This document shows, in pieces, positions 6,430 to 59,490 of a stretch of DNA of 64,000 nt; position 1 is the stretch's first letter; each line of letters begins with the position of its first letter. The DNA is taken from sequence record PQ850626.1. The stretch is one strand, 5' to 3'. The notes beneath the pieces are model-generated. The model worked only from the letters and a program-made list of their open reading frames with translations, did no database searches and had not been told where the DNA came from. Source of the DNA: Escherichia phage SkaterBoy_Bas90. The translations under genes were made by a program, and so were the position numbers.

Positions 6430-6448
6430 TAATCTTTAAGGAGGACTT

Positions 6449-7501: not shown

Positions 7502-7513
7502 AGGAGATTTGAT

Positions 7514-8482
7514 ATGGGACTTTTCGGAGGCGGGGGTAGTAAAACTACTTCCCAAATGATTCGCCCTGAATACATTCAACAGTATATTGACCAGCTTAAC
7601 CAACAGATTGGTAATACTAGTTCAGGGGATTATGTCTATCGTGACAATGTAGGGTTTAATAATAATCAGACAGAGGCACTTAATAACCTAGCACAATCTG
7701 GCGCTTTGGGCACTCTCTCACAGCAATACATGGATGCAGCAGGTCAAGGGTTAGGGTATCTGGATAATGCCTATAAAGGCTATCAGAGCCTTTCTGGACA
7801 AGGTGGGATTACTGGAGAACAGATTGGTGCTCTCGCTGGTCAACTGTATGATGATGACGCTGTGCAAGCAGCCATTACAGCTAACAATGAACAGGTTCAA
7901 CAGAATCTAGCACGTAATGCTCTTCCTCAGTTAGCTCAACAATATGCGGGTCAGCAAGGTTCAGGTGCTCGTATGGCTAAATCTTTTGCCCAAGGTGATG
8001 CTCTGAATCAGATGCAAGGTCAAGCAACAGATATTACCAACAGTGCCTATAACTCGGCTATCAGCCAAGCTGAAAGCATCCTCTCTGGTAATAGACAGAA
8101 TCAGGCAGCTGCTCTCTCTGGTCTTTCTAATATTGGTTCTAACCTTTCTAACCTAGGTCAGCAGGGTGCTAATTTGTCTCAACAGCAAATAATGAATCAA
8201 TGGAATGCAGGGTTGCAGCAACAACAGCAACAACAGAATGAATATGATAATGCCTACCAGAATGCTCAGAACGCAGCTAATTGGGGATGGCAAGATATCA
8301 ATAACCAACTCGGTGCAGCAGGTGTACTTAATGGTGCTCTCGGACAAACTACAACTACTAAAACATCTGGTGGCAAAGGTGGTTTCCTTGGTGGAGCTAT
8401 GAGTGGTGCAGCAGCTGGCTCTTCCTTTGGACCTTGGGGTGCATTAGCTGGGGGTGTAATCGGTGGGTTGGCTAGTACTTAA
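7514..8482 (+). CDS. Gln/Asn/Gly-rich virion protein (resembles the preceding gene)
   Basis: 322-aa ORF with the same composition and shared N-terminal motif (SLFGKS / GLFGGGGSKTT); AGGAGA RBS. Confidence 0.5.
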   Translation: MGLFGGGGSKTTSQMIRPEYIQQYIDQLNQQIGNTSSGDYVYRDNVGFNNNQTEALNNLAQSGALGTLSQQYMDAAGQGLGYLDNAYKGYQSLSGQGGITGEQIGALAGQLYDDDAVQAAITANNEQVQQNLARNALPQLAQQYAGQQGSGARMAKSFAQGDALNQMQGQATDITNSAYNSAISQAESILSGNRQNQAAALSGLSNIGSNLSNLGQQGANLSQQQIMNQWNAGLQQQQQQQNEYDNAYQNAQNAANWGWQDINNQLGAAGVLNGALGQTTTTKTSGGKGGFLGGAMSGAAAGSSFGPWGALAGGVIGGLAST

Positions 8483-8495
8483 TTAGGAGATAAAT

Positions 8496-10151
8496 ATGCA
8501 ACAGACAACTTACGCTCAGGTCAGAAGTCGTGACCCGAGAAATACTTTCTATGGTGTTAATCCGGGAGCGGCTTCGGCCTCTCCTTATATGGCTAGACCT
8601 ACTCAGACAGCAGATATTTCTATGTATCAACGTCCTGCTGTACCTTCATCTCTTGCGGGTCTTGTCTCTCAGGCAGAAGAAGATCAGAATGCTATGGTTA
8701 ATCCGGGATTCCAGCAACGTCTTATGGAACAGCAGAATCAAGGAACTCCTACCAGTCTTCAGGGTATTGATATTGGAGCACCGGCCCCTGTAGCAGCTAA
8801 TCCTAACCTATCCACTGATCAAGGTTTACAGGATGCTGGGCTTATGCCTAGTGACCCTCTTCCGGTAACACCTCCTCCTAAACCACTAGAAGCTGGTCCT
8901 ATGGAGTTTACTCCTTCTCAGGTGGAACAGGCACAGGGTGTGATTAACACTCTTGCTCAAGGACAAGACACTGGTGATGGAATGGCTGCTGCTACTCGTG
9001 CTAAAGATCAGGAACGTGTTAACAACGATATCTTGCAAGTTGCGAAAGCTAAAGACCCTTCAGAAGCTTGGAACAAATTACAGAAAGAACCATTCTATCA
9101 GAACTCTAGTTTCTACACAGGTTTGATGGGTGTAGGTCTTTCAATCATGTCAGGTAAGTCTCCTATCGAAGCTTTCCAGATTGGTCAGGGAATGGCTAAT
9201 CAAGATGAGACTAAGAAGCAACTGGAAGCTAACCGTGATGCTCTGATTGAACAAGGCTTCTCTCAAGACTCGATCGCAGCTGCTATTGCTAACGGAGACC
9301 CGTCTCTACTGAAGATGAGAGCTGTAGACCCTGCTCAGAAAGAAGCGTTGTATGCTGCTCGTGAAGAACGACAAAATGCTGAATGGGATAGACGTCAACA
9401 GATTCAAGAGCAAACTATGCGTGAGCGTGCTGATGAAACTCGTCGTGCCGCTGAAGAAAGGGCTAACATGAACTTTGAACGTCAGAAAGAGTTGATTGGT
9501 TATCGTGATAAAGTTAAGGCTGAACGTGCTGAACAAGCTGCTCAGAGTTTTAACTTTAACCCGAAAGAAGTTCGTCTTGCTCAGAATACAGCTGAAGGTA
9601 CGGTTGCTAAGCAGTGGGCAGAGAAAGGTGGCCTGTTTAACCAGTCTAACAAAGACTTGGATTTGGCTGATAAGGCTGTTAAGGATAAAGACTATCAGAC
9701 AGCTCGTTCTGCTTACATGCAGGCTATCATGAACTCCGCAAGGGCTGAAATCGGTGCTACTCGTTCTCTTACCGAAGAAGACTTGGGGCACTTTGCAGAA
9801 GACCCATCAATCTTCGTTCGTGTTGGCAACAAGTTTGCGCTGAAATCTGGATGGCGTCCTACTGATTCTGCTCTTGCTTATGCTCGTAAGCAAGCTAATG
9901 TTGGTCACACCTCTGCAATGAAAGGTGTTGCTGATGCTAAGAGAGCTACGATTGAAGCTTACATCGGTTCTGGTATGGATAAGAAGAGAGCTACTGCATT
10001 GGTTAACCGTGCAATCCCTTCTGGTGGTTTCTATGACCCTCTAGGTGTTTTCTCTGAACAAGCAGAAGAAGCAGTTGGTGGTGCAGCAACCAATCCTAAG
10101 CTTAATGGTGCTTTATCAGCTGTCGAAGACACTAGCTGGTTTACTCAATAA
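8496..10151 (+). CDS. internal virion protein (function unknown)
   Basis: 551-aa ORF with AGGAGA RBS; charged coiled-coil-like C-terminal half. Confidence 0.45.
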   Translation: MQQTTYAQVRSRDPRNTFYGVNPGAASASPYMARPTQTADISMYQRPAVPSSLAGLVSQAEEDQNAMVNPGFQQRLMEQQNQGTPTSLQGIDIGAPAPVAANPNLSTDQGLQDAGLMPSDPLPVTPPPKPLEAGPMEFTPSQVEQAQGVINTLAQGQDTGDGMAAATRAKDQERVNNDILQVAKAKDPSEAWNKLQKEPFYQNSSFYTGLMGVGLSIMSGKSPIEAFQIGQGMANQDETKKQLEANRDALIEQGFSQDSIAAAIANGDPSLLKMRAVDPAQKEALYAAREERQNAEWDRRQQIQEQTMRERADETRRAAEERANMNFERQKELIGYRDKVKAERAEQAAQSFNFNPKEVRLAQNTAEGTVAKQWAEKGGLFNQSNKDLDLADKAVKDKDYQTARSAYMQAIMNSARAEIGATRSLTEEDLGHFAEDPSIFVRVGNKFALKSGWRPTDSALAYARKQANVGHTSAMKGVADAKRATIEAYIGSGMDKKRATALVNRAIPSGGFYDPLGVFSEQAEEAVGGAATNPKLNGALSAVEDTSWFTQ

Positions 10152-18992: not shown

Positions 18993-19252
18993 TATTCTAT
19001 TCCACGCTCTTTCAGAGCTTCTAACAATCCATTGTGATTAGCAGCACATTCTGTGTACTGGTCCTGATACCACTCCAACGTAGTGGCTAGTGCTTTTCCT
19101 TGAGCACTTTCTAAAAGAGGTAGGTCAACCCTACATTCAGCTTTTAGGTTTGTTGGTAAGGGCATTGATTGCCTGCTGTTGTCGCTCGTTGAACAAGCTG
19201 ACATACTCATCACTAGCGCAGACATTATAAAAAACTGGTTTAGTTTTCTCAT
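18992..19252 (-). CDS. o-spanin-like outer-membrane lipoprotein (overlaps the i-spanin gene out of frame)
   Basis: From ATG 19252: signal peptide MRKLNQFFIMSALVMSMSAC with a lipobox-like Cys, short periplasmic domain with Cys and Pro; starts inside the upstream gene in the +1 frame, the Rz/Rz1 overlapped architecture. Confidence 0.5.
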
Positions 19253-27223: not shown

Positions 27224-27961
27224 TTAAGCTTTCTTTTCCATTGCTTTAACAATCGCCTTACAGAAACCAGAACGAACAATATCATCTGATTCACCATCTA
27301 CAATCTCAGCAAACTCATACAGATCATGTTCATCAATAAAGTTAGTAGCCCAAGTAAGACCACTCTCACGACCACGCATATCATGCTGGTTAGTATCGCC
27401 CATGCAGAACAGCTGAGAGGTTTCTCCCAATCGAGTCATGATCGAGAAGGCTTCATCTTTAGTGGTGTTCTGGAATTCATCAACAATAACAATAGCATCA
27501 TTGAAAGAACGACCACGGAGATATTCCAGAGGTACGAACTCAATGTTACTGTTACCGAGCTGGCATTCATAGAATCCCTTACCATATCGCTGAGTAATAA
27601 CATCAATGATAGGCATCAGGTAAGGTTCAAACTTCTCACGCATTCCTCCCGGAAGTAACCCAAGAGAGTTACCCATGCCGACCGAAGGACGACTCAGAAT
27701 GATCTTCTGAATCTTACCGCTCTTCAGTGCATCAATAACCGTGGAAGTGATTACAAAGGTCTTACCACAGCCCGCAGGAGCGTCTGTGAACACAACTTGT
27801 TTAGTCTTAATAGCATTGAGTAGCTCAGACTGAAACTGGTTCTGAGGGACTACAGGCTTTGCTAAAACCACCTCTTCATACTCTCGCTTACCCTTACGAG
27901 TAACAAGTGCTTCCCGACGAAGGTCTTTCCGTGATTCTTTCCGTGATTGACGACGACTCAT
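27224..27961 (-). CDS. phoH: PhoH-like ATPase
   Basis: Walker A DAPAGCGKT and Walker B IVIVDEFQN with overall PhoH-like layout. Confidence 0.7.
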   Translation of the reverse strand: MSRRQSRKESRKDLRREALVTRKGKREYEEVVLAKPVVPQNQFQSELLNAIKTKQVVFTDAPAGCGKTFVITSTVIDALKSGKIQKIILSRPSVGMGNSLGLLPGGMREKFEPYLMPIIDVITQRYGKGFYECQLGNSNIEFVPLEYLRGRSFNDAIVIVDEFQNTTKDEAFSIMTRLGETSQLFCMGDTNQHDMRGRESGLTWATNFIDEHDLYEFAEIVDGESDDIVRSGFCKAIVKAMEKKA

Positions 27962-28155
27962 TTACGCTCTCCAATTTCTTCGTAATGACATTCAGTAGTT
28001 AAGCAGTCTTTACAGATTGCTGTATAAACCCTGACGTTAGTAAATCGTTTGTTCTTCCCTTTGGTTGGAGAGCCTTTGGCAAGCTCTCTGATAACCTTGT
28101 TACTTAAATGAAGGTTTGTTCCTTCACATCTAGAGCACTTCACCACAATGTCCAC
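27958..28155 (-). CDS. small zinc-ribbon-like protein
   Basis: CSRCEG ... CKDC ... C pattern; start overlaps the PhoH stop. Confidence 0.3.
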   Translation of the reverse strand: MDIVVKCSRCEGTNLHLSNKVIRELAKGSPTKGKNKRFTNVRVYTAICKDCLTTECHYEEIGERK

Positions 28156-28340
28156 TCAGTAAGAGACCACAAGGAGTCACCTATGTGGGAATTGTCATTT
28201 CTGATGAGGTCTTTGATTTTATCAACATCAGTTAAGTTGGTCACATTCAAAATGTCCTCAACATCCGGGGCATATTTAAATATGGCAACAATACTGTTGT
28301 GATCTTCAGCGTATCTTTCTAGAACATAAACTACGCTCAT
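28140..28340 (-). CDS. hypothetical protein
   Basis: 66-aa acidic ORF. Confidence 0.3.
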   Translation of the reverse strand: MSVVYVLERYAEDHNSIVAIFKYAPDVEDILNVTNLTDVDKIKDLIRNDNSHIGDSLWSLTEWTLW

Positions 28341-28660
28341 GCGACGTTAACCTCTTTATGAAGTCTGTAAACAGCTGTCGCCATACAAGCAACAGCTTCG
28401 TTATGTGGGAGATGCATACCTGTAGAACCATCCCAATCTTTAAACTCGTTGTCAAAGACTCCAGTAGGTTCTGGATACAGAGATTGCAACTCAACCAAAT
28501 CGTTAGCAACTTGTTGCCATTTATCATCAGACCAGATAGGGTCATCCAACCAGTAATACAAATAGGAATGGATGATCAATTGCCTTCTATGACGATTGAT
28601 TACTTCAGCGGGACTTATTTCACTTCCATTTGAAGTCCTAAATGTATTACTGTCAATCAT
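28337..28660 (-). CDS. hypothetical protein
   Basis: 107-aa ORF. Confidence 0.3.
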   Translation of the reverse strand: MIDSNTFRTSNGSEISPAEVINRHRRQLIIHSYLYYWLDDPIWSDDKWQQVANDLVELQSLYPEPTGVFDNEFKDWDGSTGMHLPHNEAVACMATAVYRLHKEVNVA

Positions 28661-28905
28661 TTCACAACCTTAAATTTGAATGTTGTTGGGTGATAATAAT
28701 GCAATCTATTGATAGTGTGTTTTGTTTCAAGATATATCCTGCAAGAGTGGCACATGACATGGGTCAGACCAGTTACAGGATTAGGTTTAAAGTTGGCGAC
28801 AGTCTTCTCTTTATTACAGAAGCTACAGATTTTCTTTTCCATCTTTTCTCCAGTGGTCAACGAATTGCTGAAACACTTTACGATCAAATGTGAAATTACG
28901 AGCAA
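28657..28905 (-). CDS. hypothetical Cys-containing protein
   Basis: 82-aa ORF with CSFC ... CHSC. Confidence 0.25.
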   Translation of the reverse strand: MLVISHLIVKCFSNSLTTGEKMEKKICSFCNKEKTVANFKPNPVTGLTHVMCHSCRIYLETKHTINRLHYYHPTTFKFKVVK

Positions 28906-29056
28906 TTCCGCATTCTCTAAAAGTGGCAGGCATATAATCTACATCACCTTCAGATGTATGACCATAGACTTGAATAAGCTTCTTAATCTTATCCTTCTCT
29001 CTTCGAGGAAGCATTCTAAATGCCTCCTGAATATCTGTAATATGTTTTATCTTCAT
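28823..29056 (-). CDS. hypothetical protein
   Basis: 77-aa ORF. Confidence 0.25.
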   Translation of the reverse strand: MKIKHITDIQEAFRMLPRREKDKIKKLIQVYGHTSEGDVDYMPATFRECGIARNFTFDRKVFQQFVDHWRKDGKENL

Positions 29057-29453
29057 AAGGAATTCCTGCTAATCCTCTGAGTTGTGGGAACAGCAATATT
29101 CACATACTCCGCAACATGGACAAATTTCTACACTTGGGTCATATGCATCATCAACTGTCATCCCACACTTGGTGCAGAACACATCGTCATCTTCTTCCAA
29201 CATTAATCCTCCAAACAAGAATCATTCATCAGTAGCTCCAAGCTATCAAGTGTGTAATAATAACCAAAGAATGGGGCTGTTGACTTGGAAACCTTTTTAT
29301 CAAAAAGAGATTGAGAAACATCCTCTTCTACTCCAACATCCTCAAGCTGCGGTTTTGTAGGGTAGTCAGTGAAAGAGCAAAGTACTTCTCTGTCCTCCCC
29401 TCTGTCCGTTTCTTCGACACGACTCAGAATCCAAATACTTTTACTAGCCATTT

Positions 29454-30110
29454 TTAACTCTCCAAAGTTTTCTTCAGAGCTGCCCATGAGATTGGGTAGA
29501 GTTTAGCCATCTCTTCATCCAGAGATTGAGCAAACACTCTAACTTCGTATTGAGCGTGAGAGGAGAGTCGCTGACGACACAACTCAAACCATCCATACAA
29601 AGAACCAGTCCACACCCACTCAGTGATCATCCCCTGAGGGAGTACAAATCTGGCTTGCTCTGGTGCAATAAACTCAATTAACTTGTCATATGCTGCTAGA
29701 GAAGCTTCATATGCATCGTTAATCAACATTAATGCTTCAGCTCGTTCTCCGTCGATGAGTTGAATCCCTGAACCTGCATGGAGGTCCGAAGGTCTAGCAA
29801 AAATCTCTTTAGGGATGAAGACTTCAACTGCTCCATCTTTATACCGCCGGGACATTTCGTTCCACGAGAATCCAACCTGATGCTTGCCCAACTGTCTCGC
29901 AATTGCAATAGGTGCTTTGCATCGGAAACTGACTTGCGGGTGTCGGAATGGGGTAACATGCTTCTCTCTTGCGAGGAAGTTGATGAGACGTTCATCACGT
30001 TCATTTAAATCACCTTCACGGGTTACGCCAAAGGAAACTCGAGCTGCGTTTACTACGCTACGATCACTTCCCATAGCTTCGATTAATGTTGCTTGTAGTT
30101 GTTCATTCAT
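29454..30110 (-). CDS. thyX: flavin-dependent thymidylate synthase
   Basis: ThyX signature ...RHPQVSF ... GKHQVGFSWNEMSRRY... (RHR-x7-S-type motif). Confidence 0.75.
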   Translation of the reverse strand: MNEQLQATLIEAMGSDRSVVNAARVSFGVTREGDLNERDERLINFLAREKHVTPFRHPQVSFRCKAPIAIARQLGKHQVGFSWNEMSRRYKDGAVEVFIPKEIFARPSDLHAGSGIQLIDGERAEALMLINDAYEASLAAYDKLIEFIAPEQARFVLPQGMITEWVWTGSLYGWFELCRQRLSSHAQYEVRVFAQSLDEEMAKLYPISWAALKKTLES

Positions 30111-30125
30111 CCGTGAATATCCTTA

Positions 30126-30401
30126 TTACTTATTGCTCAGGGCTGTGTCCAAAAATGCTTTCAGGTTTGCTTCAGTCTGCATACCAGAGAGGCTATAGTG
30201 TGCACCACTGTTACGGTCAGGCACAACGAAAGCAGGGATACTTCGTACACCATACTTAACAGCTTGTTCACGACCATCACCTTCAAGGATGTTAATCTCT
30301 TCAACTTCTACATCAAACTCCTTAACAACCTTCTCAAAGGTAGGAGCCATTGCTTTACATGGAGCACACTGATCACTATAAAACTTAATTACTTTAGGCA
30401 T
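30126..30401 (-). CDS. thioredoxin / glutaredoxin-like redox protein
   Basis: CAPC active-site dithiol and a cis-Pro-type SIPAF motif in a 91-aa Trx fold. Confidence 0.65.
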   Translation of the reverse strand: MPKVIKFYSDQCAPCKAMAPTFEKVVKEFDVEVEEINILEGDGREQAVKYGVRSIPAFVVPDRNSGAHYSLSGMQTEANLKAFLDTALSNK

Positions 30402-30650
30402 GTAAATCCTTATGCAGTCAGGAGGTGAAGCAGGAATGGGATAACAACAGCTACGATAACCATGATAGTTGATGCTGTTTGAATCTCACCTTTCTTATCA
30501 GGAGTTTCTTCAATAAGCTTACCAGAAGCCCAATAAATACCACCACCAATAAAGATAGCCCAAATACCCCATACGATTGCTGATAACATATATCTATATC
30601 CTTATAAATAAGTTCGCCCCACCTCGGGTTAGGAGACAGGGCGGAGGTTT

Positions 30651-31214
30651 TTAGTAAGACACGTCACCACTTGAATGGGACATGTTGCTCTTGACGAAGT
30701 AGCAATACTTGCCAAGACCTTCATTAATTTCTTGAAGCATACTCTGATCGACAGGGTAGGTGGCTAAATCACCATCAAACTCATCCATCTTCTCAATAAT
30801 ACACATCAAGGTCATGCACATATCAGAGAGCATACCGTCCATGTCTAGATCAGCGTTACCCTCTGAGAACCAAGCATGAGAGAGGTAGTTAGCTGCTGTA
30901 GCGTCCACTTTAACACAGTGGTAACGCATACGTTCAGCAATACGATCTCCTACCTGTCGTGCGTAATCTTCCAGCTCGTCAAACATACCATGAACACCCT
31001 GAAATCCTGAACCAGAGACGTTCCAGTGGTAGTTTTTAGCTTTGATATGCAAGAGTTCCATGTTAGCTTGCAAGCAGCTCAGAATGTGTTCTAGGCTGTT
31101 TCCACTAATCATACCCTGCATTGTTTCAAGGCGAGAGATTGATAGGTCGGACCGGTCTAACATACTATAGCTGTCACGACCAATCTCAGGTAAATCAAAG
31201 ACATTCTTATGCAT
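30651..31214 (-). CDS. Dps / ferritin-like protein
   Basis: NYHWNVSGSGFQGVHGMFDELEDY matches the Dps signature HW-x-V-x-G-x5-H-x-x-F-x-E; start trimmed to ATG 31214 (GGAG RBS). Confidence 0.55.
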   Translation of the reverse strand: MHKNVFDLPEIGRDSYSMLDRSDLSISRLETMQGMISGNSLEHILSCLQANMELLHIKAKNYHWNVSGSGFQGVHGMFDELEDYARQVGDRIAERMRYHCVKVDATAANYLSHAWFSEGNADLDMDGMLSDMCMTLMCIIEKMDEFDGDLATYPVDQSMLQEINEGLGKYCYFVKSNMSHSSGDVSY

Positions 31215-31536
31215 TTGGGTTTTCTCCATCAAGTTCAACCGAGTTAGCAACATTACGTGCAATATTATCCATTACCTGCTGGGTAATTACGATGCAGTTC
31301 TGTGGGTCTACTGACTTAGAACGCCCCATTTCAGGGTCATACACCTTAACCCGCTTAGCAGTTGAACCTGTAACCTGAAGAACCTTCAACAGATATCCCT
31401 GATTACCAATAGACCAAGCAACAACATCACGATTCTTGATAAAGCGACCAAGCATATCACGATGATAAAACTGTTGCATCACCTTGGATTTTGTAATCTC
31501 TTCAGTGGGCGGGGCCACTTTACTCAAATCTAACAT
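31207..31536 (-). CDS. hypothetical protein
   Basis: 109-aa ORF; an AAATGTATA motif lies about 40 nt upstream (31576..31584). Confidence 0.3.
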   Translation of the reverse strand: MLDLSKVAPPTEEITKSKVMQQFYHRDMLGRFIKNRDVVAWSIGNQGYLLKVLQVTGSTAKRVKVYDPEMGRSKSVDPQNCIVITQQVMDNIARNVANSVELDGENPNA

Positions 31537-31608
31537 AACTCTCTCCTGTAAAATACAAATTCTTATTGTACTCTATATACATTTGAGAGTTACCATATCT
31601 ACTACCAA

Positions 31609-31818
31609 TCAGTAGTAAATTACTTTAGACATAAAAGAACCAGTGTTAGGGTCTTCATACCAGCGATGTATGTCAGCGCTTTTTACTATTGTGCCCAGAG
31701 TCTTCAACTGTTTCTTAGCAATACGAGCCTCTTTGCGAGTATCAAACAATTTGATGTTATCTTTTCTCATGTGTTGCTCAAGATCCCAAACAACATGAAT
31801 AGCCCACATCTTTTTCAT
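31609..31818 (-). CDS. small basic protein, member of a tandem triplet
   Basis: About 69 aa ending in ...YY; resembles the next two ORFs. Confidence 0.4.
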   Translation of the reverse strand: MKKMWAIHVVWDLEQHMRKDNIKLFDTRKEARIAKKQLKTLGTIVKSADIHRWYEDPNTGSFMSKVIYY

Positions 31819-32027
31819 TAGTAATGTACCTTTCCGCTGATATAAACACGACCAGAAGAATACTCCTTGGCCTTATGGATACTGATACTATTAACCACGT
31901 CACCAGTAAGCATAGTCTTTTTAAAATCTCGAGCTTGTTGGCGAGTGGGTAGTGCAGTCATAGTCATGCCACCTGATGCCCACTTAATCTTTGCTAACCA
32001 AAATTGTCTCATGGTGATTGGTCTCAT
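31818..32027 (-). CDS. small basic protein, member of a tandem triplet
   Basis: About 69 aa ending in ...VHY. Confidence 0.4.
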   Translation of the reverse strand: MRPITMRQFWLAKIKWASGGMTMTALPTRQQARDFKKTMLTGDVVNSISIHKAKEYSSGRVYISGKVHY

Positions 32028-46398: not shown

Positions 46399-46572
46399 AC
46401 TTACTCCTGTTGTTTACACTCGTCAATAACCCACTGATAAGTGGATTGCCCAGAAAAGAAACACTGAATAAATCCAGATGTTCTCTGCGTTACCAGTGCT
46501 AGTGCACAAATCACTACCGCTGCTGCTAGCAGTTTTAAATCTAATTTAGACATATTTCCTCTCTTTGAATTT

Positions 46573-46598
46573 AAAAAAGGACTCTCCGAAAAGAGTCA
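46573..46598 (-). terminator. rho-independent terminator
   Basis: On the - strand GACTCTTTTCGGAGAGTC followed by CTTTTTTAAATT. Confidence 0.55.
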
Positions 46599-46660
46599 AG
46601 CTTTAAATACAAAAAGATATTACCCAATATCTGTGGATAACCTGCTCTTAAAATATCTAT

Positions 46661-46776
46661 CCGACGGATGTTCGAGGAATGTTCCTCTCCCTAGCATCGG
46701 CCCCATACGGGAAATATATTAAGATTAGGTTAGTTGAGTCAGAATAACTCACATAGCCCTCCGAAGAAGGCTATAG
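46661..46776 (-). repeat. conserved ~110-nt intergenic element, copy 1
   Basis: Shares CGGATGTTCGAG, CTCTCCCTAGC and CTCACATAGCCCT...AGGGCTAT with 52068..52174. Confidence 0.5.
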
Positions 46777-46788
46777 GCGTTACTACAA

Positions 46789-47007
46789 CTAAAAATCACC
46801 TGATTTTACAAAATCATCACTAAGAATTTCGTCAATCTCTTTGCTAGTCAAATCTTTCCTGAACCAGCAACAAGGAACATTCACCCATTGACCAGAGTTG
46901 TTCTCTACAGAGCATAGATTCCCTGTCTTACTCTTGCATTTATAAGATTTTCCTTTATCTAGGCGATAGTGTAATCTGTAAACTACAGACACAAGTGTTA
47001 TCATCAC
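46789..47007 (-). CDS. hypothetical protein
   Basis: 72-aa ORF. Confidence 0.3.
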   Translation of the reverse strand: MMITLVSVVYRLHYRLDKGKSYKCKSKTGNLCSVENNSGQWVNVPCCWFRKDLTSKEIDEILSDDFVKSGDF

Positions 47008-47237
47008 TCACCTTTCTTAGCACGATCTTTGGCAGTTTTGCCAGTGCGGATGCGATGAGAAACGTTAACCAGAGTGCCACCATCAACTACGGTAACGCTC
47101 TTGTTTTTAGCCAGATCAAACACAGTCTTCTCTGTACCACCCAAGCGAATTTGCTTAGGTTCGCTGAAGGTTTGGGTTGATTTGGATTGGAACTGAAACG
47201 GTTGACGGATTGCATCGATTGCGCTTACTTTAGACAT
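47004..47237 (-). CDS. hypothetical basic protein
   Basis: 77-aa ORF with AAGGAA RBS. Confidence 0.35.
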   Translation of the reverse strand: MSKVSAIDAIRQPFQFQSKSTQTFSEPKQIRLGGTEKTVFDLAKNKSVTVVDGGTLVNVSHRIRTGKTAKDRAKKGE

Positions 47238-47469
47238 AGGGGAAATTCCTTAAAAAATTATGGCTGCGTAGAGGGAATTCCCTACGCAAATCGGGCCGCC
47301 CACAGAGAGGCGTCATAGTACTAAAAGGAGGAGAGAAGAGGGCTTATTTAGCTACCTTTTTCTGTCCGTTTACGAACCAGATAATTGAACCGTCAGGCTG
47401 TCGTTGACCGAAGCCTTTCTGGTTAATCATATCGTCATAAGAATATGCTTTACGTCTCATTTGTTTTCC

Positions 47470-47724
47470 CTACGAAGTTAAGATGATTTCAGCCTTAATA
47501 AACTTCTCACCAACAACCATATCACCAGAGATGACACGTAGTTCTCCAGTGCCTAGGTTAACAGCTCCAGCAGGTTGACAACCCCTGCTTTTAGCTGTCA
47601 TCATATAAACCTTTTGATTTTGGCACTCTTGGAGAGTGAACACATCTGACATATTTAGATCTCTGACGCGGAGGATTTTTTCCTCTTTGTCTTTAACTTT
47701 AATGTTAATAATGCTCATATGCAC
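47470..47724 (-). CDS. member of a ~80-aa paralogous family
   Basis: Shares the L-x2-L-x2-G-x-(V/T)-F core and length with at least nine other ORFs. Confidence 0.45.
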   Translation of the reverse strand: MHMSIINIKVKDKEEKILRVRDLNMSDVFTLQECQNQKVYMMTAKSRGCQPAGAVNLGTGELRVISGDMVVGEKFIKAEIILTS

Positions 47725-47969
47725 TACTCCTGAACCACTGACATACGAATCATTTCTACCTGATCATCAAGACCTTTAACAGATAACACACCTGTGGAAA
47801 GGTTTACCACAGGAACCCAACCACTGGCTATACGGATGTTACCAGAAGCATTTTCAACCCTCATGTAATACTGAGGAGAGGCACTTCCGTTCTGAACCAC
47901 GAAAGGGTTTCCGGGAATGATTGTTTCCAATCGTACCGTATTATCCTTTTTCTTTGGGATGATTTTCAT
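47724..47969 (-). CDS. member of a ~80-aa paralogous family
   Basis: As above; tandem, start overlaps the neighbour's stop. Confidence 0.45.
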   Translation of the reverse strand: MKIIPKKKDNTVRLETIIPGNPFVVQNGSASPQYYMRVENASGNIRIASGWVPVVNLSTGVLSVKGLDDQVEMIRMSVVQE

Positions 47970-48217
47970 TGCGTATTATCCACCAAAAGTTCTGCTGATA
48001 CAGGAACAACTCGGCACCAGATAGAAGGTGCTGTTACGTTACCATCGGATAGACGAAGAGTAATTGTTCGATCAGAGTTAACGGTTACATTAGGACTTTC
48101 AGACACAGACCCTTTAACATAGAGAGTAGCACTCTCAGGGAATTTAAACACTGCTCCGCTGGGGAGGGAGTTGAGATCAATCGTGGTCACTTCTTCTTTC
48201 TTGTGGGTAATCTTCAT
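47966..48217 (-). CDS. member of a ~80-aa paralogous family
   Basis: As above. Confidence 0.45.
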   Translation of the reverse strand: MKITHKKEEVTTIDLNSLPSGAVFKFPESATLYVKGSVSESPNVTVNSDRTITLRLSDGNVTAPSIWCRVVPVSAELLVDNTQ

Positions 48218-48468
48218 TTAGAATCCTTAATAACGTTAGCTTCAACCTTAACAGGAATAACAGAGATGCCCTCAACGGGGCCACTTAAGTGTCCATCTTC
48301 CAGTCTGACACACACGACTCGATCTCGTGCAACTTCTACCCAATTAGTAGATGCCGCAGTACAGACCATATGAATTGGACCGTTCTCTTCCAGCCGGAAG
48401 GTATCGCCCTTCTTCAGAGTGTGGAGTTTCACAGTCTTGATAGTTTTGTTCAATTCGTTAACTTTCAT
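48214..48468 (-). CDS. member of a ~80-aa paralogous family
   Basis: As above. Confidence 0.45.
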   Translation of the reverse strand: MKVNELNKTIKTVKLHTLKKGDTFRLEENGPIHMVCTAASTNWVEVARDRVVCVRLEDGHLSGPVEGISVIPVKVEANVIKDSK

Positions 48469-48476
48469 ATTGATTC

Positions 48477-48788
48477 CTATTTAAGTTTGAGGCTAATGTT
48501 AAGGTGCATACATGCTCTGTTCTGTACAGCAGCATAACTTCTACCGAGCATGTCAGCCATTCTCTGAATAGACATGAACCCAGCATTACGGATAAGGAAC
48601 TGGTCCTCTTCTTCAGACCATTTAACTCGGATTGAAGCTCTTGATATGCCGAATTTAGTGCAAGCTGTGTTAACAGCATTCTCCGTTACATTCATAATCT
48701 GAGCTACTTCTTGAACCGAGTACTCTTTGATTAGTCTCCGAAGATTTTCAATCTGCATCGGAGTCCATATAGTTCTTCGTGCTTTCAT
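48477..48788 (-). CDS. DNA-binding protein with two HTH-like repeats (candidate transcription regulator)
   Basis: Two similar ~45-aa units (W...EVAQIMNVTENAVNTAC and WSEEEDQFL...MADMLGRSYAAVQNRAC). Confidence 0.4.
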   Translation of the reverse strand: MKARRTIWTPMQIENLRRLIKEYSVQEVAQIMNVTENAVNTACTKFGISRASIRVKWSEEEDQFLIRNAGFMSIQRMADMLGRSYAAVQNRACMHLNISLKLK

Positions 48789-49466
48789 ACATCCTCCAAT
48801 TAATTGTTAAAACTATCAGGGGAGAACACTAGCTCTGGGCCACGCTGTAGATATTGGCCTACCTTCCACAGCTAATCAGCTAATATACTCCCCTAATAGT
48901 TTATGAATAGGGGGAGGGGACGAATCCTCCCTTATCCTATTAGTTAATATTGCATGTAAGATCTAACAATCGGTTGCCTTTGTAGGAATAAGCGTAAAGC
49001 CAATCCAGCACTAAACTCCCGCCCCCTTAGTGGGCTGGGTTATTAAAGGGTAACGCCCTTATGGGCTAGTTACATGAATGTTAGTTTGATAGGAGATCTG
49101 AAGTCCTATCTCAAAGGACTCTCGTAAGAATCCTTCACGATATTACTTATTCATCTCTCGTCGGCTATCTCTCCAAGCCAACCAAGTGTAGGTTTTCAGT
49201 TCTTCAAAGTCTTCTGGAGAGAATAGATACTCTTTGAAGGTGTTCCCAAACCACTCTAAAAATTCTTCAGTCATAAGATTCTCTTAACAAGATTGGTCAC
49301 ACGGCTGATCACCACATGTTTTACAGATCACTGGTGAGTAACTACAGGCAGGATAAACAGACACCCCATCAAACGTCTCACATCCACAATCAGGACATGT
49401 ACCGTTGGATTCCATGTCATCATCGTCATCTACTTCACCGCCACCAAAACAACTCATACAGGCTCC

Positions 49467-49688
49467 TTAGTAAACTAAACCTGTAGCCTTTGCATCAGGC
49501 TGAGGGACTACTTTTGCACTAGGGCGATAGCCATCCACTGAGCCGTTCCAAAGATTGACACAGGTGATATATCCATCGTCTATGATGTCTGTTTTAATCC
49601 AGAAGTGTTTATCATGACCAAAAATACTTCCGTTTGGCAGCGTGGACAATTCAACAGTTTTAAGTGACTGCTTAGAGTCTAGTTTCAT
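49467..49688 (-). CDS. member of a ~80-aa paralogous family
   Basis: Contains LSTLPNGSIF...FWIKTD core. Confidence 0.45.
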   Translation of the reverse strand: MKLDSKQSLKTVELSTLPNGSIFGHDKHFWIKTDIIDDGYITCVNLWNGSVDGYRPSAKVVPQPDAKATGLVY

Positions 49689-49697
49689 ATAAGTTCC

Positions 49698-49895
49698 TTA
49701 ATATACCAAACCATGTAAAAGAAACATCCTCTTTGTAAGCTCTGCTTTAGCTCTGTAATAAGCCTTAGAACCTAACAGGCGGCTCTTAACAAAGAACTTA
49801 ATGTCATTGCTAACATCTTGTATTAAACGCTCCTGTACAGTTTCTGAGGAGTTATTAATCGAATCAATTAACACCTTTGTAGATGTGTAATTCAT
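49698..49895 (-). CDS. hypothetical small protein
   Basis: Track ORF 49698..50087 trimmed to the internal ATG (MNYTSTK...), because the upstream part overlaps the lipoprotein gene. Confidence 0.3.
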   Translation of the reverse strand: MNYTSTKVLIDSINNSSETVQERLIQDVSNDIKFFVKSRLLGSKAYYRAKAELTKRMFLLHGLVY

Positions 49896-49896
49896 A

Positions 49897-50196
49897 TCAC
49901 CACTCCTTACCGGTTGTAATCGTAGAGCCACCACACCACAATGCTGTATCAATAACAACATTATCCGGTGTAGACTTCTCTTCGTTGATAGAAGGGTTAG
50001 CATTAGAACAGGTTGCTCCGTTCCATCGCATATCAATTTCACCAGAAGGAATCTTCTCACCCTTATGCCAGCGAGAAACACAAACACCTTCCACTGCTAC
50101 TGCACACCATCCATCAGGACGGCTCTGTACGCAGCCTGTAAGGGCTATGCAGACAAGGAAGATACAGATTAAGGATATTACACCACCCCAACTCAT
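49897..50196 (-). CDS. Cys-rich lipoprotein (candidate superinfection-exclusion or receptor-blocking protein)
   Basis: Signal peptide with lipobox LTGC, then a Cys-rich periplasmic domain. Confidence 0.45.
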   Translation of the reverse strand: MSWGGVISLICIFLVCIALTGCVQSRPDGWCAVAVEGVCVSRWHKGEKIPSGEIDMRWNGATCSNANPSINEEKSTPDNVVIDTALWCGGSTITTGKEW

Positions 50197-50215
50197 AATT
50201 ACCTCCTATTAGATT

Positions 50216-50331
50216 TGGTGGACTATCTGGAATCGAACCAGAAGCTCACTAAGAAAGTAATTCCCACTGTTATAAAAGCACTTGCCTCAACAGGGATACA
50301 CTAACTCTGGTGCCGCACCCATACTAGCCCT
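50216..50331 (-). ncRNA. tRNA-like fragment (intact T-arm and CCA-type 3' end, but no canonical acceptor or anticodon stem)
   Basis: - strand ends ...TCTGGTTCGATTCCAGATAGTCCACCA (T-stem, GTTCGATTC loop, 3' CCA); no cloverleaf could be completed by hand. Confidence 0.3.
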
Positions 50332-50336
50332 AAATG

Positions 50337-50412
50337 TGGTGCGCCCTACAGGACTCGAACCTGTAACCAATAGCTTAGAAGGCTACTGCTCTATCCATTG
50401 AGCTAAGAGCGC
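50337..50412 (-). tRNA. tRNA-Arg, anticodon UCU, 3' CCA encoded
   Basis: Hand-folded cloverleaf on the - strand: acceptor GCGCTCT/AGGGCGC, D-arm GCTC-AATGGAT-GAGC, anticodon stem GTAGC/GCTAT with loop CUUCUAA, T-arm ACAGG-TTCGAGT-CCTGT, discriminator A, CCA. Confidence 0.8.
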
Positions 50413-50587
50413 AGAATTATTTAGATCATATCTCGCTTGGTGATATGACCACATGTTTTACATCGAAGTATATAACGAGTACCTGTGTCTTCTATTTGAC
50501 CAATCTCATTATATATGTGTAAACGAACTTCTTTTATTGTCTCCCAATCATGCAGATGGAATAGACGTTTAAACCACTTGAACATAA

Positions 50588-50881
50588 TTACACCACCTCA
50601 ACGAGAGATGTTTTCCATGCAAACAGAGGTCCATTATCGTTAAGATAAACAGCTCCTCCCGTCTCGAACGGAGTCCCATAAGGAAGTGCCCAAGCATACC
50701 CACGAATTTCTGGCTTATGGGTAAACCCATATACCTCGCCGTTGCTATCAGTTGCTAAATATCTTATAGAGCTGTCCACTTTAACAACTTCGCCAAAATA
50801 TTTAACCTCTTTTCCTTTCATATTAACCTCAAGCACAAGCAGGGAGTGTGATGATTTTATGCTTACCATCAAATTCTCCAA
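50588..50881 (-). CDS. hypothetical protein, distant paralogue of 50829..51080
   Basis: Shares Y(L/I)A(T/I)D..G(E/Y)V(Y/W) core; N-terminus probably shorter than the track ORF. Confidence 0.35.
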   Translation of the reverse strand: MENLMVSIKSSHSLLVLEVNMKGKEVKYFGEVVKVDSSIRYLATDSNGEVYGFTHKPEIRGYAWALPYGTPFETGGAVYLNDNGPLFAWKTSLVEVV

Positions 50882-51080
50882 ATAAACCTAAGAATGTGGG
50901 ACTGTAAGTTCCAGTACAAACAAACTCATCAAACAATGCGTTATAACTAGGCTTGATCTTCCAAGCCCATACATAACCCATCTTGTCAATTGCAATGTAA
51001 CGAGTGTTCAGAGGAACAGTCATCATTATACCATCAACTTCGATCACTTTAGTGATTGGTGCAGCTTGGAAGTTTTTCAT
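50829..51080 (-). CDS. hypothetical protein, paralogue of 50588..50881
   Basis: 83-aa ORF. Confidence 0.35.
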   Translation of the reverse strand: MKNFQAAPITKVIEVDGIMMTVPLNTRYIAIDKMGYVWAWKIKPSYNALFDEFVCTGTYSPTFLGLFGEFDGKHKIITLPACA

Positions 51081-51245
51081 ACTTTACCTTTGATAAAAAT
51101 GTCATTACCACAGACACAGCATGAACGAACAACAGTAGCGCCACGCTGAACAATACGAACCTCTTCCTTAACCAGACTAATACGAGCACCGCAGCAAGGA
51201 GAGTTGACATAAGAGTAACCAGCTTGCGTATGTTTGATTATTTGC

Positions 51246-51602
51246 TTAGACATTTGATTCTAGATCTCTTAGTTGTTCAGCCAATTGTTCGCATTCATTA
51301 ACGCATAACTCTTCTGTTCTTGGTATCCCGTTAGGGTTGAACCGTGTCTTATCACCTGCATGGGCACAATCAAATCCGATTGTATCTAAACCACCCATCT
51401 CTTCAAGGGTGTCTTGCCATGTGACACCACCATGAACACTTACATAACAAACCTCTTCCTTTCCGTTATATCCGGTGAAGTTTTTATGTTTTAAGCTGTC
51501 TGGTAGCTCTACATATCCACAAAAATGGGAGTCGTTCATGTGCATAATCACAGCACGAAGACCTGATTTAGTGACCCAATCTTTAACCATGCGTCTCATA
51601 TA
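51246..51602 (-). CDS. hypothetical protein
   Basis: Track ORF 51246..51659 trimmed to ATG 51602 (AAGAGGTG RBS), because a terminator hairpin occupies 51636..51672. Confidence 0.35.
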   Translation of the reverse strand, partial: YMRRMVKDWVTKSGLRAVIMHMNDSHFCGYVELPDSLKHKNFTGYNGKEEVCYVSVHGGVTWQDTLEEMGGLDTIGFDCAHAGDKTRFNPNGIPRTEELCVNECEQLAEQLRDLESNV

Positions 51603-51635
51603 AGCACCTCTTGTTAGTTTAAGTAAGAGTTGTCC

Positions 51636-51672
51636 CTTAATTAAAACAACAAAGGCCACCCGAAGGCAGCCT
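51636..51672 (-). terminator. rho-independent terminator (same hairpin family)
   Basis: On the - strand AGGCTGCCTTCGGGTGGCCT followed by TTGTTGTTTT. Confidence 0.5.
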
Positions 51673-52067
51673 CTCTTTATTTGTTAACTGTTATACGTCC
51701 AATTACCTTGCTTGTTACGGATGGCTGACATTGCATGAATCCAGAAGCCTTCCAGTTTCAGAGCACCATTAGCTACTGCATCCATACGTTCAGGGCGGTT
51801 CATACGTTTGGTTGATACTTTCATACCTATCTCTCTTTGTTAGTGGAGGCATTATTGCCAGTTGATATAAGGGATAGCCCTAGTCAGTAGACTAACCCTG
51901 ACCGCGTACTCATTGCCGACCTTCTCTGCCTAAGAGTTCAGGTTCTAGAGCTATCTCTTATCCCAACTGGTGAAGACTCCCTACCCCTAGGAAGTCTCCT
52001 GAATCCCAAACCAATACGTACCCCTACATATCGGAAAGTCTTTCGAAAATTAACAGGTTTTAGTCTA

Positions 52068-52174
52068 ACACCGGATGTTCGAGCAAGCTCTCCCTAGCGG
52101 TGTGGCATATGCCTGAATTAATAAGTTAATGAGGAACACCCTCACATAGCCCTCTGATAAACACAAGGGCTATA
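52068..52174 (-). repeat. conserved ~110-nt intergenic element, copy 2
   Basis: Same motif order as 46661..46776; hairpin ATAGCCCT...AGGGCTAT at 52146..52173. Confidence 0.5.
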
Positions 52175-52182
52175 AGTCGGTG

Positions 52183-52401
52183 TTACTTTTGGGATAAACA
52201 CAGATCGGGACGTGGCATAACAGTGGTTGATAGACCGAAGACTTCAACAGAACCACTGCTCAAGTTAGCAGCCTTACACAAACCATCAGGGGTTTTATCT
52301 TCTAGCATCAGCCAGAAACGTTTATCATAAGAGAAAACATCACCACCTTTAATGTCCTCTGCATTTGCATATTTAGGATAATCAACTACTTTAATTTCCA
52401 T
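52183..52401 (-). CDS. member of a ~80-aa paralogous family
   Basis: IKGGDVFSYDKRFW core. Confidence 0.45.
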   Translation of the reverse strand: MEIKVVDYPKYANAEDIKGGDVFSYDKRFWLMLEDKTPDGLCKAANLSSGSVEVFGLSTTVMPRPDLCLSQK

Positions 52402-53364: not shown

Positions 53365-53650
53365 TGTTAATCTCCTGCTGTTTAGCAATAGCCACTCGCA
53401 AGTCTTCATTAGCACGAGCAAGGCGTAACACTTCGTGGTTGAGGTTCTGAAGACGCTTGTTTCTGTCCTCTACTTGCATAATAAGATCGTTAAGTGTTAC
53501 TTTAACTTTCTCATTATACATCTCATCCACTCGAACTAGGGATTTATACATTCTCTCCCAGCTTGCTGCTTTGTTTCTGAGAATAATAAATCCTAGAACG
53601 CTGATAGTTAAACAGCTTACAAAAAGGAATTTATATACTTCTAAAGTCAT
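53354..53650 (-). CDS. membrane-anchored coiled-coil protein (holin/spanin-like, function unresolved)
   Basis: N-terminal TM segment FLFVSCLTISVLGFIIL followed by a charged helical domain; downstream of the cell-wall hydrolase gene. Confidence 0.35.
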   Translation of the reverse strand: MTLEVYKFLFVSCLTISVLGFIILRNKAASWERMYKSLVRVDEMYNEKVKVTLNDLIMQVEDRNKRLQNLNHEVLRLARANEDLRVAIAKQQEINNEA

Positions 53651-57539: not shown

Positions 57540-59490
57540 AATTGTAAGGGCGCTATTGCCCCGCTCTCTATGAGCTTGTTTAAGTCACTATTAACTTAAC
57601 TATAACCACTCGTTGTTAAGTAGTTATAGGTAAGCGGGGCGGTCTTATCAGGAGTTAACCTTGCCGCCCCCTTATCCGTGATGTTTCATCTGGTATCTTT
57701 AATTAGTCGCTATAAACGAAGCCGACCTGATAGCGATGATCAATCATCACAATAAGGCAGTGCGTCCGACTCTAATTAGTTACGTTATTGTAACCGTCGG
57801 CAATATCGTTTACTTTGCTTTCGCTCTCGCCTATCCTTTTATATCAACTCTCAATCGCTAGTCATCGCCCACTACGGGATACTATTGCGAAAGAGTCATT
57901 GACCGTCTAATGTTCCGACGTTTTATATCTTTCGGCAAGTTTACTACATAAACCGACTATGTACTTTCATCATAAGATGAATCTCAAGCCGTTCACATTG
58001 TAAACGTTCACACTAAACCTTATTGTTAAATAGCAATTTGCCACTTTTTAACCACTCCCCGCCGCTCTCAATTGAGCGTTAATTCGTCGGGATTGCCTAC
58101 CCTGATTAACTTCTTTCACTGTAGCACCGTGTTAGCAATGACCGCCGCTACCCTTAACCGTGGGCGATTAGCTCAAGTCTTTGCGTGTACTCAATGAATC
58201 CGTTTATCAATGGTGACGTTTCCAGTAAGGGAATGTAAAACTGTTTACCCTGATAATTTAGGGAGTTTTACGCCGTTTTATCTGGTATGCTTTCCGATGG
58301 TTATTATCATCAAGCATATTCAACCGATATAGGAGAATGTTTAAATTATTAAAGAGCGGTAAATCTATCAGTGTGCTTTCTCACACTATGCAACTGTTAG
58401 CCGTTGTTACGCTTTTCACTGAAGCGATGATTTGCTTAGTGAGTGCTCATTATGAATCATGTTGTTTTCGCTGTCAACCGCTTTTTAATCTTTTTCGTCG
58501 TTCCCGCTATTGGGAGGATATATCAATCAGCTTTATTTGATTGAAGATTAAGCGGTGAGGCTTAACTTATGACTCATATTGTTAAAGAGCGTTTAGCCTT
58601 TTAAAGTGTCTGCTAATCACTGTCACATTGAAGGCTTACTGATTCATTAACAGGCCGCCTACACCTGAACTAATCGCTGCACTATGTGCCACCTTTCCCG
58701 CGATACGTTGATTTGGGAACTAGTTAGCGATGTTTTGCTAACTTGTGGTTAGTATGGACTACTTTAACCACGTTTGCAACTCTTTTTATCATCTTCTTTT
58801 AATTCCTTTCCCTTATCTCGCGTGAATCTATGCGAAAGGGCAAGATGATAAGTCTGATTTGTCTTTCAGGGAATCTAGTGCGCTTTCAAGCATTAATCTT
58901 TTGAAAGTATCGAACAAATAAGGCTTATTGATATTGCTTATTGTCCGCCTGCGTCACGTATGAATCAGGAATCAATTCTACCGATTAACTGAGCGCCTTA
59001 TAGTAATGACGTCGCCGCCACCCGTAAGACAAATCATATTTTTAAAGAGCGGGATTTTTTAAGTCATCGCTGACTATGCTCACTATATATCAGGCTGTTT
59101 TCGGTGTCAATACTCTTTTTAAGAATATTTTCACTTTCTAGCCTGATTTTTAAAGAGCGGGGCAAGTTTCCTTGCCTTGTATGTTTTACATCGTACCCGA
59201 TGAAATGAAGTATACATTAATCAGTGAGGGATGCAATAGGGTAAAACAAAATATTTTAAACTTTTTCACTATAGGAAGGTAAAAGAGCGGGCGAACGTGA
59301 TACATCATAGGAAAAGGCTTGTAAAGCGATAACAAGCGGCCTATAACGCATCACAATGAGCTAAAAGGGAGTAAGGTATACAATCACCTTAGAAAAGAAA
59401 AAAGCCTCATAGCGAGGCTTATAGGAAGGATTTAAAGCATCAGATAGATTATGACCATAGGCATGACTACGGCACAATACAGGAGAAAGA
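57540..59490. repeat. ~1.9 kb ORF-poor, repeat-rich region (five TTAAAGAGCG(G) direct repeats, two TTT(C/T)ATCTGGTAT repeats, several hairpins)
   Basis: Only one track ORF (67 aa) in six frames; TTAAAGAGCG copies near 58349, 58582, 59042, 59150, 59280; a - strand TAATGTATA at 59211..59219. Confidence 0.6.
59211..59219 (-). promoter_or_regulatory. TAATGTATA motif on the - strand inside the ORF-poor region
   Basis: Plus strand reads TATACATTA; would drive transcription leftwards through the repeat region. Confidence 0.35.

Follow-up and report, generated by a model that had tools for sequence, protein, structure and literature searches.

The 64,000-nucleotide (nt) stretch of DNA from Escherichia phage SkaterBoy_Bas90 (PQ850626.1; this whole stretch is hereafter called the window) carries two copies of a structured RNA element of about 110 nt, copy A at 46661..46775 and copy B at 52068..52174. 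Both lie on the - strand, which carries all genes of this region, and are therefore in the sense orientation of the Kuravirus early operon. The element is a new phage RNA family, which is absent from Rfam and of which no description was found in the searchable literature. It is proposed, with a probability of roughly 40%, that the element and a small basic protein of the phi32_112 family, whose gene follows copy B, constitute a nut/N-like antitermination module. Whatever its function, the family shows unusually clean covariation and has a conserved protein neighbour.

An earlier note had claimed that the two regions share several sequence blocks in the same order and orientation, and its coordinates are correct. 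Three blocks, AGGGCTATGTGAG (13 nt), GCTAGGGAGAG (11 nt), and CTCGAACATCCG (12 nt), occur without mismatch on the - strand only at 46748-46760 and 52141-52153, at 46685-46695 and 52088-52098, and at 46665-46676 and 52072-52083, respectively. Since a given 13-mer is expected by chance only ~0.002 times per 128 kb, three collinear exact blocks are not a chance occurrence. A covariance-model scan of the 64 kb window with filters off returned exactly two sites, scoring 149 bits (copy A) and 144 bits (copy B; 143.8), followed by a third-ranked match of 19 bits. In the - strand alignment, the divergent spacers that separate the blocks form hairpins with altered arms that still pair, as in CCC/GGG vs. 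GGC/GCC, CCGAUG/CGUCGG vs. ACACCG/CGGUGU, and UGAGU/ACUCA vs. UGAGG/CCUCA.

The element is comprised of five helices, in the order P1, P2, linker, P3, P4, internal loop, and P5. P1, of 10 base pairs (bp), is separated by 0-1 nt from P2, of 5-9 bp, and an AU-rich linker of 9-34 nt comes after P2. P3 (3 bp, closed by a (G/A)UAU loop) abuts P4 (6-7 bp), which is followed by a symmetric 7x7 internal loop with CUAGGG(A/C) opposite (G/A)AACAUC, while P5 consists of GAG/CUC and 0-2 extra pairs. In copy A, P1 occupies 46775-46752, P2 46751-46735, the linker 46734-46712, P3 46711-46702, P4 46700-46695 with 46666-46661, and P5 46687-46674, with CUAGGGA (46694-46688) opposite GAACAUC (46673-46667) in the internal loop. 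In copy B, the corresponding parts are P1 52174-52145, P2 52144-52130, linker 52129-52114, P3 52113-52104, P4 52103-52098 with 52073-52068, internal loop 52097-52091 opposite 52080-52074, and P5 (3 bp) 52090-52081.

The single hairpin that had been noticed previously is the first of these five helices. Its reported 8-bp stem, ATAGCCCT/AGGGCTAT, is exact in copy B, but the partner arm in copy A is AAGGCTAT, which gives C.A on the + strand and G.U on the - strand; the true P1 helix has 10 bp. It had been placed about 10-15 nt after the stop codon of a small gene, which holds for copy A but not for copy B. The upstream open reading frame (ORF) of copy A (46789..47007, -; 72 amino acids (aa), phi32_91-like) ends 13 nt before P1, whereas that of copy B (52183..52401, -; 72 aa) has its TAA stop only 8 nt before P1. 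In every copy with a located upstream stop, P1 begins 5-18 nt past it.

The covariation was assessed in a curated alignment of 33 distinct sequences and 31 pairs, in which lengths were N-padded so that MAFFT kept the register. Standard pairing is present in 99.0% of the 968 cells, and double compensatory changes are found at 16 of the 31 pairs. None of 500 shuffles matched the alignment in any of five measures, and pairing falls to 30-44% when the partners are slid by 1-3 columns. G.U pairs make up ~10% of the pair cells and would be A.C on the + strand, which in copy A folds no better than shuffles (z = 0.13 vs. -2.30). Since knowledge of the structure had guided the curation, single-sequence folds served as an independent check. 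The minimum-energy folds of copy A, copy B, the copy of Salmonella phage 7-11, and a divergent metagenomic copy (L049) each contain the same five helices, and RNAalifold on 15 copies recovered P1, P3, P4, and P5 unaided. Because of the covariation, the strand-specific G.U pairs, and the concordant folds of four divergent copies, the element is regarded as a structured sense-strand RNA, and the previous suggestion of a conserved regulatory RNA structure is strongly supported.

The internal loop, the GAG/CUC pairs of P5, and P3 are invariant even in L049, whose P1, P2, and P4 are fully resubstituted. In addition, covariation is seen at the loop position adjoining P5, where A accompanies G or C accompanies A. 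As judged from the alignment, an invariant loop with such a covarying position is the signature of a putative surface for specific recognition, and the constancy of the loop and of GAG/CUC in L049 supports a specific recognition site.

With regard to distribution, the covariance model (R1) finds exactly two copies per Kuravirus genome, one copy each in Salmonella phages 7-11 and pSal-SNUABM-01, and no copy in the early half of Cronobacter phage GAP52, in whose searched part the small protein is likewise absent. Among 50,697 phage records, the RNA and the small protein are both confined to Kuravirus and 7-11-like phages. Far from being missing in related genomes, which the earlier note would have taken as evidence against it, the element occurs in over 100 records of related phages. 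Positions 44-54 kb of the window match Escherichia phage vB_EcoP_DE5 over the full length with 98.5% identity, and the next-best Kuravirus (phiEco32-like) phages with 92-98%; in an annotated relative, the copy A locus lies between the phi32_91 and phi32_90 homologues and the copy B locus just upstream of the phi32_112 homologue. Further variants were obtained by pattern searches in IMG/VR, metagenomes, and GTDB genomes, and chance matches were removed by inspection or covariance-model search (L006, L014, L016, L025, L034-35, L040-42, and L045-46, all without the other helices). The divergent copy L049:3016-3146 (59 bits) comes from a phage-like contig that had been binned as a Flavobacterium metagenome-assembled genome, and this contig also carries a homologue of the Srd/sigma70 decoy. 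At gathering thresholds, Rfam 15 detects only a tRNA-Arg in the window; at E values up to 10 in both regions, it gives a chance mir-1284 match on the terminator of copy A and nothing for region B.

The neighbourhood of the element is also conserved. The small basic protein gene (51684..51824, -) encodes 46 aa (MKVSTKRMNRPERMDAVANGALK...) of the phi32_112 family, and its product is the proposed RNA-binding partner. The homologue in 7-11 is gp135, and metagenomic relatives have 44-59 aa; the family shares KRMNRPERMD, usually with an Arg/Lys-rich N-terminal extension (MNRRNTRAFRKTAHK... / MNRRNTRAFRKTAHKRMNRPERMD). In Kuravirus, the element (copy B) lies 243 nt upstream of this gene. Contigs encoding three divergent family members were fetched and scanned with R1, which found the element (68-83 bits across the scanned contigs) 104-140 nt upstream of the gene on the same strand in L054-L057 and L061-L062, and one small gene upstream of it in L052 and L053. 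The order of RNA element and then small basic protein gene is found in four lineages including Kuravirus, with 100-550 nt between them. No element copy is located near the gene of a fourth, 7-11-like member (L058-L060), as in 7-11 itself, where the protein gene is 12 kb promoter-proximal to the single element. In both Kuravirus and 7-11, the terminator-adjacent copy lies farther from the promoter than the protein gene does.

Terminators form the second part of this neighbourhood. The absence of a T-tract had been taken to mean that the hairpin is not a standard terminator, which is true of P1, but a canonical intrinsic terminator 65 nt downstream of copy A had been missed (46571..46597, -; GACTCTTTTCGGAGAGTC + CTTTTTT; stem 46597-46580, then T6). 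It is directly followed by the ribosome-binding site (RBS) of the next gene (ORF 46553-46401, -) and is the last strong terminator in the window before ~20 kb of genes. The 7-11 copy is followed, 40 nt downstream, by a canonical terminator (L004:19210-19227), which is the only convincing one of its kind in ~39 kb of early operon, and the L052-type copy is followed, 50 nt downstream, by a GC-rich terminator-like hairpin. A further terminator-like hairpin (51651..51674, -; AGAGGCTGCCTTCGGGTGGCCTTT + GTTGTTTT) lies right after the small gene, ~400 nt past copy B. The block of element, GGTTATCCACA, and terminator has 69-74% identity between Kuravirus and 7-11-like phages, including compensatory changes in the terminator stem, and the genes flanking it are unrelated between these groups. 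The earlier note had overlooked this conserved neighbourhood of an Arg-rich protein gene and terminators, which points more towards antitermination or a ribonucleoprotein (RNP) function.

Strong sigma70-type promoters on the - strand are found at 59110 and 58477, and terminator-like sites at 56603, 55275, 55190, 51674, 47289, and 46597. In the close relative SU10, the early class comprises coding sequences 69-125 (PMC4281155). In 7-11, two right-end promoters start early transcription, and the transcripts span close to half the genome; the far-right sigma70 promoters alone have been validated, and the authors considered an antitermination strategy very likely used, yet to be defined (PMC8948821). 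Because only these far-right early promoters are validated, polymerase must pass the terminator that follows the A-type and 7-11 copies.

According to the nut/N-like reading, host RNA polymerase would make a long leftward early transcript containing each copy, and the element would fold right after the ribosome leaves the upstream ORF, forming two stacks, P1/P2 and P3-P4-purine-rich 7x7 loop-P5. The Arg-rich phi32_112-family protein would then bind the invariant internal loop, so that the element would act as a recruitment site with a nut-like function. This complex of RNA and protein, perhaps joined by host Nus factors, would remain on the elongating polymerase, which could then read through the terminators at 51674-51651 (after copy B) and 46597-46580 (after copy A) and give access to ~20 kb of early genes farther downstream that lack their own promoter. 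The binding of protein to RNA and the effects on polymerase and termination are what we infer here from the structure, its strand, its copies, the synteny, and the terminators. Purine-rich internal loops are sites that arginine-rich peptides typically bind, e.g., Rev-RRE. The layout of nut/N-type systems, with an RNA site by an Arg-rich gene and further sites before terminators, is matched here: the synteny holds in four lineages, and terminators lie 40-65 nt past the A-type and 7-11 copies. It is somewhat less probable that the pair represents an RNA-protein processive antitermination system of sigma-encoding virulent phages, unrelated in sequence to N/nut, Q/qut, and put, and is the very strategy postulated for 7-11 and phiEco32-like phages. 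Both phiEco32 and 7-11 serve as models of sigma appropriation, with early genes in very long host-polymerase operons, and a 110-nt RNA with an invariant loop plus a tiny Arg-rich protein offers a candidate for the undefined antitermination of 7-11. If true, the very few known processive antitermination systems would gain a new class, and a compact RNA-peptide pair would become available for synthetic termination control.

Several observations weigh against such a module. Both copies are preceded by three predicted strong terminators (56603, 55275, and 55190), so not all read-through can be attributed to the element. The small protein is much shorter than N and shows no detectable homology to N, Pfam, or PDB entries: it gave no alignment with the BTP1 N-like protein in BLASTP or hhalign, no convincing Pfam match, and no PDB match. 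Moreover, the Kuravirus version of phi32_112 is without most of the Arg-rich extension. In the 8 kb examined, the L049 contig shows neither a clear terminator nor a homologue of the protein gene. Near-consensus phage-sigma or sigma70 promoters, such as GAATGTATA at 53553-53545, could lessen the need for read-through, and the synteny fits a purely autoregulatory leader equally well. The resemblance to boxA is also weak (CUCAUUAAC vs. CUCUUUAAC) and falls partly inside P2.

Compared with the nut sites and N (gene 24) of lambda and P22, the element is likewise a sense-strand RNA signal in an early operon, with one copy upstream of a small basic Arg-rich protein gene and another before a gating terminator. 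The likeness to P22 nutL-N extends to a leader fragment in the same relative position: 51947-51881 (-), located after copy B and before the small protein gene, shares 82% identity with the leader from nutL to gene 24/N of P22-like phages. This fragment of a P22-type N leader in a lambdoid-like position lends independent circumstantial support to the module. A partial likeness to nut is also seen in a weak boxA-like stretch followed by a small hairpin. Candidates for boxA (CGCUCUUUAAC-like) found by eye are CUCAUUAAC in copy B, CUCAACUAAC in copy A, and CUCACUAAC in 7-11; they are partial and overlap P2, and the 3-bp P3 hairpin follows 11-19 nt later. In contrast to nut, which has boxA and a 15-nt boxB hairpin, the element has ~110 nt, five helices, and a 7x7 loop; unlike N, the protein has 44-59 aa and no N homology; and unlike lambdoid phages, the phages bearing the element are virulent and sigma-appropriating. 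Well-known arginine-rich motif (ARM) peptide-RNA pairs are Rev with stem IIB of the Rev response element (RRE) in human immunodeficiency virus and Tat-TAR in bovine immunodeficiency virus. The element appears to share with them a purine-rich loop with likely non-canonical G.A/A.G pairs, short flanking helices, and an Arg-rich peptide, here encoded nearby; there is no homology, and the likeness is only one of site type.

The best surviving alternative, itself unlikely, is an RNA processing or stability element, in which an RNase III cut, or RNase E cuts in the AU-rich linker, would divide the early polycistronic transcript so that the upstream mRNA keeps protective hairpins, as in T7. Like the T7 RNase III sites (R0.3 to R1.3), the copies are repeated homologous structures directly past stop codons, within an early polycistronic transcript that host polymerase makes in a virulent coliphage, and each presents a hairpin with a conserved internal loop; the T7 early intergenic regions indeed fold into homologous hairpins with internal loops (L051:1430-1500 and 5830-5930). 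P1/P2 and P3/P4/P5 can stack coaxially because their junctions are 0-1 nt, the single-stranded linker is RNase E-like, and a long RNase III-like hairpin stands beside copy B. However, RNase III prefers about two helical turns and has weak sequence specificity, whereas the longest continuous helix here is 10 bp, P5 has 3 bp in copy B, and the P3-P4-loop-P5 stack would amount to ~17-21 layers if coaxially stacked. Distant phages share all 14 loop nucleotides unchanged, which is more than the specificity of RNase III or RNase E calls for, and unlike T7, with its one long hairpin per site, there are five helices of at most 10 bp and only one or two sites per 30-40 kb operon. The element has no similarity to the T7 early region (R1 on T7 1-9000: best match 6.3 bits, E 2.9), and processing would leave its linkage to the small protein gene unexplained.

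Somewhat less likely than processing, the element may serve as an autoregulatory leader or operator, to which the small protein would bind to control its own translation or mRNA stability with no effect on polymerase; copy A and the 7-11 copy would then be extra operators for other genes. Such a role would suit the order of element and protein gene kept in four lineages, the invariant operator-like internal loop, and the highly structured leader between copy B and the gene. It agrees poorly with the distance of 100-250 nt, sometimes a whole gene, from the RBS, with the position of the only 7-11 copy 12 kb from the protein gene and before a terminator and an unrelated gene, and with the terminator that separates copy A from the next gene.

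It is improbable that the element is a trans-acting stable RNA or RNP, freed by processing and the terminator and serving a host factor as decoy, sponge, or scaffold, perhaps jointly with the small protein. The retention of element, invariant 11-mer GGUUAUCCACA, and terminator in A-type and 7-11-type copies despite different flanking genes resembles a small RNA derived from a 3′-untranslated region with a seed, and the block is expressed early and occurs more than once; but copy B, L049, and the L052 type are without the 11-mer and a good terminator, and no promoter was found before any copy.

Slightly more doubtful again is an RNA-only antiterminator of the put type, in which the nascent RNA would bind polymerase and suppress pausing and termination without a phage protein, as put RNA does through the beta' zinc-binding domain of the enzyme. 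The positional arguments are the same as for the nut/N-like module, and like putL and putR of HK022, the element occurs as two related structured copies per genome with a two-domain fold, in nascent early transcripts before terminators (PMC9378689). L049 also has the RNA with no recognisable protein gene within the 8 kb examined. On the other hand, the element is larger (~110 vs. ~70 nt), its copies are not promoter-proximal, and the conserved linkage to a small protein suggests a protein partner rather than protein independence. There is no similarity in sequence or structure to the HK022 region carrying the put sites: with filters off, the best R1 match in HK022 27500-34000, taken to cover the early control region of a record in which the put sites are unannotated, scored 7.6 bits (E 2.5).

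A signal acting at the DNA level, such as a replication origin or single-strand initiation site with single-stranded DNA (ssDNA) hairpins and a DnaA box loading a host factor, is very improbable. A perfect DnaA box (TTATCCACA; 46632..46640, -) does lie between copy A and its terminator, 20 nt past copy A as past the 7-11 copy; it is part of the GGTTATCCACA stretch, which is invariant in A-type and 7-11-type copies within a varying spacer, and is conserved in Kuravirus, 7-11 (L004 ~19180-19190), pSal-SNUABM-01, and metagenomic relatives. The linker is AU-rich, and ssDNA hairpin signals also covary. The box is absent after copy B, however, and the DNA-level explanation is further disfavoured by the absence of a DnaA box from all metagenomic lineages, by the several G.U pairs per copy, by the variable loop size between the P1 arms, by the strict sense orientation just past stop codons, and by linkage to the small basic protein gene instead of replication genes; GC skew tracks the transcription direction only and is uninformative on the origin. 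A new self-cleaving ribozyme separating early mRNAs is hardly credible, as the invariant nucleotides concentrated in an internal loop between covarying helices and an intergenic phage location as for many twister-sister, pistol, and hatchet ribozymes are offset by the lack of any Rfam ribozyme match, even at E up to 10, and by nothing specific supporting catalysis.

Some other candidate roles were considered and rejected. P1 is not an intrinsic terminator, as P2 follows directly with no U-tract. Stimulation of stop-codon read-through or frameshifting was discarded, since in copy A the first stop is followed two codons later by another. A connection with lysis genes was also dropped: an endolysin gene follows the 7-11 terminator, but the downstream genes in Kuravirus are unrelated. 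Identity as tRNA or transfer-messenger RNA (tmRNA) was excluded; the only tRNA in the region is a tRNA-Arg (anticodon TCT) at 50337-50412 (-), between the two element copies. Pairings of leader with tail and of linker with tail (UAAC with GUUA) were suggestive, but their register is inconsistent between lineages, and they were omitted from the model. A riboswitch-like overlap of terminator and antiterminator was rejected as well; among the alternative pairings examined (P2 vs. terminator, and a duplicated AGAUAUU in copy A), those seen by eye were weak or lineage-specific and not conserved in 7-11. The AGAUAUU sequence occurs twice in the Kuravirus copy A region (46611-46631 and 46647-46660, -) and is absent from 7-11; one site is in the element tail and the other supplies the 5′ side of an AU-only hairpin (AGAUAUU-GGGU-AAUAUCU) with UUUUUG after it, and the two could pair alternatively.

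The reading of the element as a promoter was likewise rejected, with no convincing match to sigma70, gp36, or gp47 motifs in or just upstream of it. Neither copy has a TAATGTATA-like match to the gp36 consensus tAATGTAtA. The gp47 consensus of 7-11 is GTAAtg-(16)-aCTA (PMC8948821), and the 7-11 copy has GTAACA followed at the 16-nt spacing by GAGT, not aCTA. Exact gp36 (phage-sigma) promoters, TAATGTATA, are found on the - strand of the window only at 59211, 27204, and 20351, with none between 59.2 kb and 27.2 kb. The first (59211-59219) precedes the strongest sigma70 early promoter (59110) by ~100 nt, and a one-mismatch version, GAATGTATA, is located at 53545-53553 (-), ~1.4 kb upstream of copy B. 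Phage-sigma polymerase could enter the early operon from either the site at 59211 or that at 53553.

Additional structures are present in the leader that runs from copy B to the small protein gene. Two hairpins with an identical UA-GGGG-UA apex, whose stems covary among Kuraviruses, are located downstream of copy B (52011..52034 and 51972..51999, both -). A long irregular hairpin with a ~20-bp outer stem (51862..51966, -) then ends ~37 nt before the start codon of the small gene. The P22-like fragment tops this irregular hairpin of ~20 bp in both phage groups, with compensatory changes, and the matches fall in the untranslated stretch between nutL and N/gene 24 of Salmonella phages BTP1, L, SE1, ST160, and others. 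Judging from these sequences, 51862-51966 is likely an RNase III-type leader structure exchanged between unrelated phages. In L049, a hairpin with AGGGG in its loop is found downstream of the element (~3186-3225), and UAGGG recurs in the internal loop of the element itself; UA-GGGG-UA, AGGGG, and UAGGG may be a repeated, candidate protein-binding motif. In the ECBP2/4E8 sublineage of Kuravirus (L012:2483-2640 and L019:12394-12551), copy A has a long P1 loop of the copy B type (CCCTTGTGAGTATCAGAGGG), which suggests, as far as sequence comparison can tell, gene conversion between the copies.

The surroundings of the protein gene in 7-11 have features of their own. An unannotated 712-nt gap after gp135 (L004 7073-7783) contains a sub-threshold Rfam match to permuted tmRNA (L004 7346-7490; 29.6 bits vs. 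a gathering score of 47), for which ARAGORN calls nothing, and two T-arm-like motifs (GGTTCGAATCC / GGTTCGACTCC). The gene of gp136 (L004:6691-6906), annotated as 'anti-termination protein Q-like', overlaps the start of gp135; against Pfam, it gives only a weak match to a DnaJ-type CXXCXGXG zinc finger (E 3.5e-4), below the cutoff, and the Q-like label thus has no Pfam support. In addition, an RNA-binding protein with a ProQ/FinO domain is encoded in the same early operon of 7-11-like phages and of the new metagenomic lineages bearing the element (L052:19454-19894, L053:10741-11181, L055:17080-17517, and L017:13041-13769).

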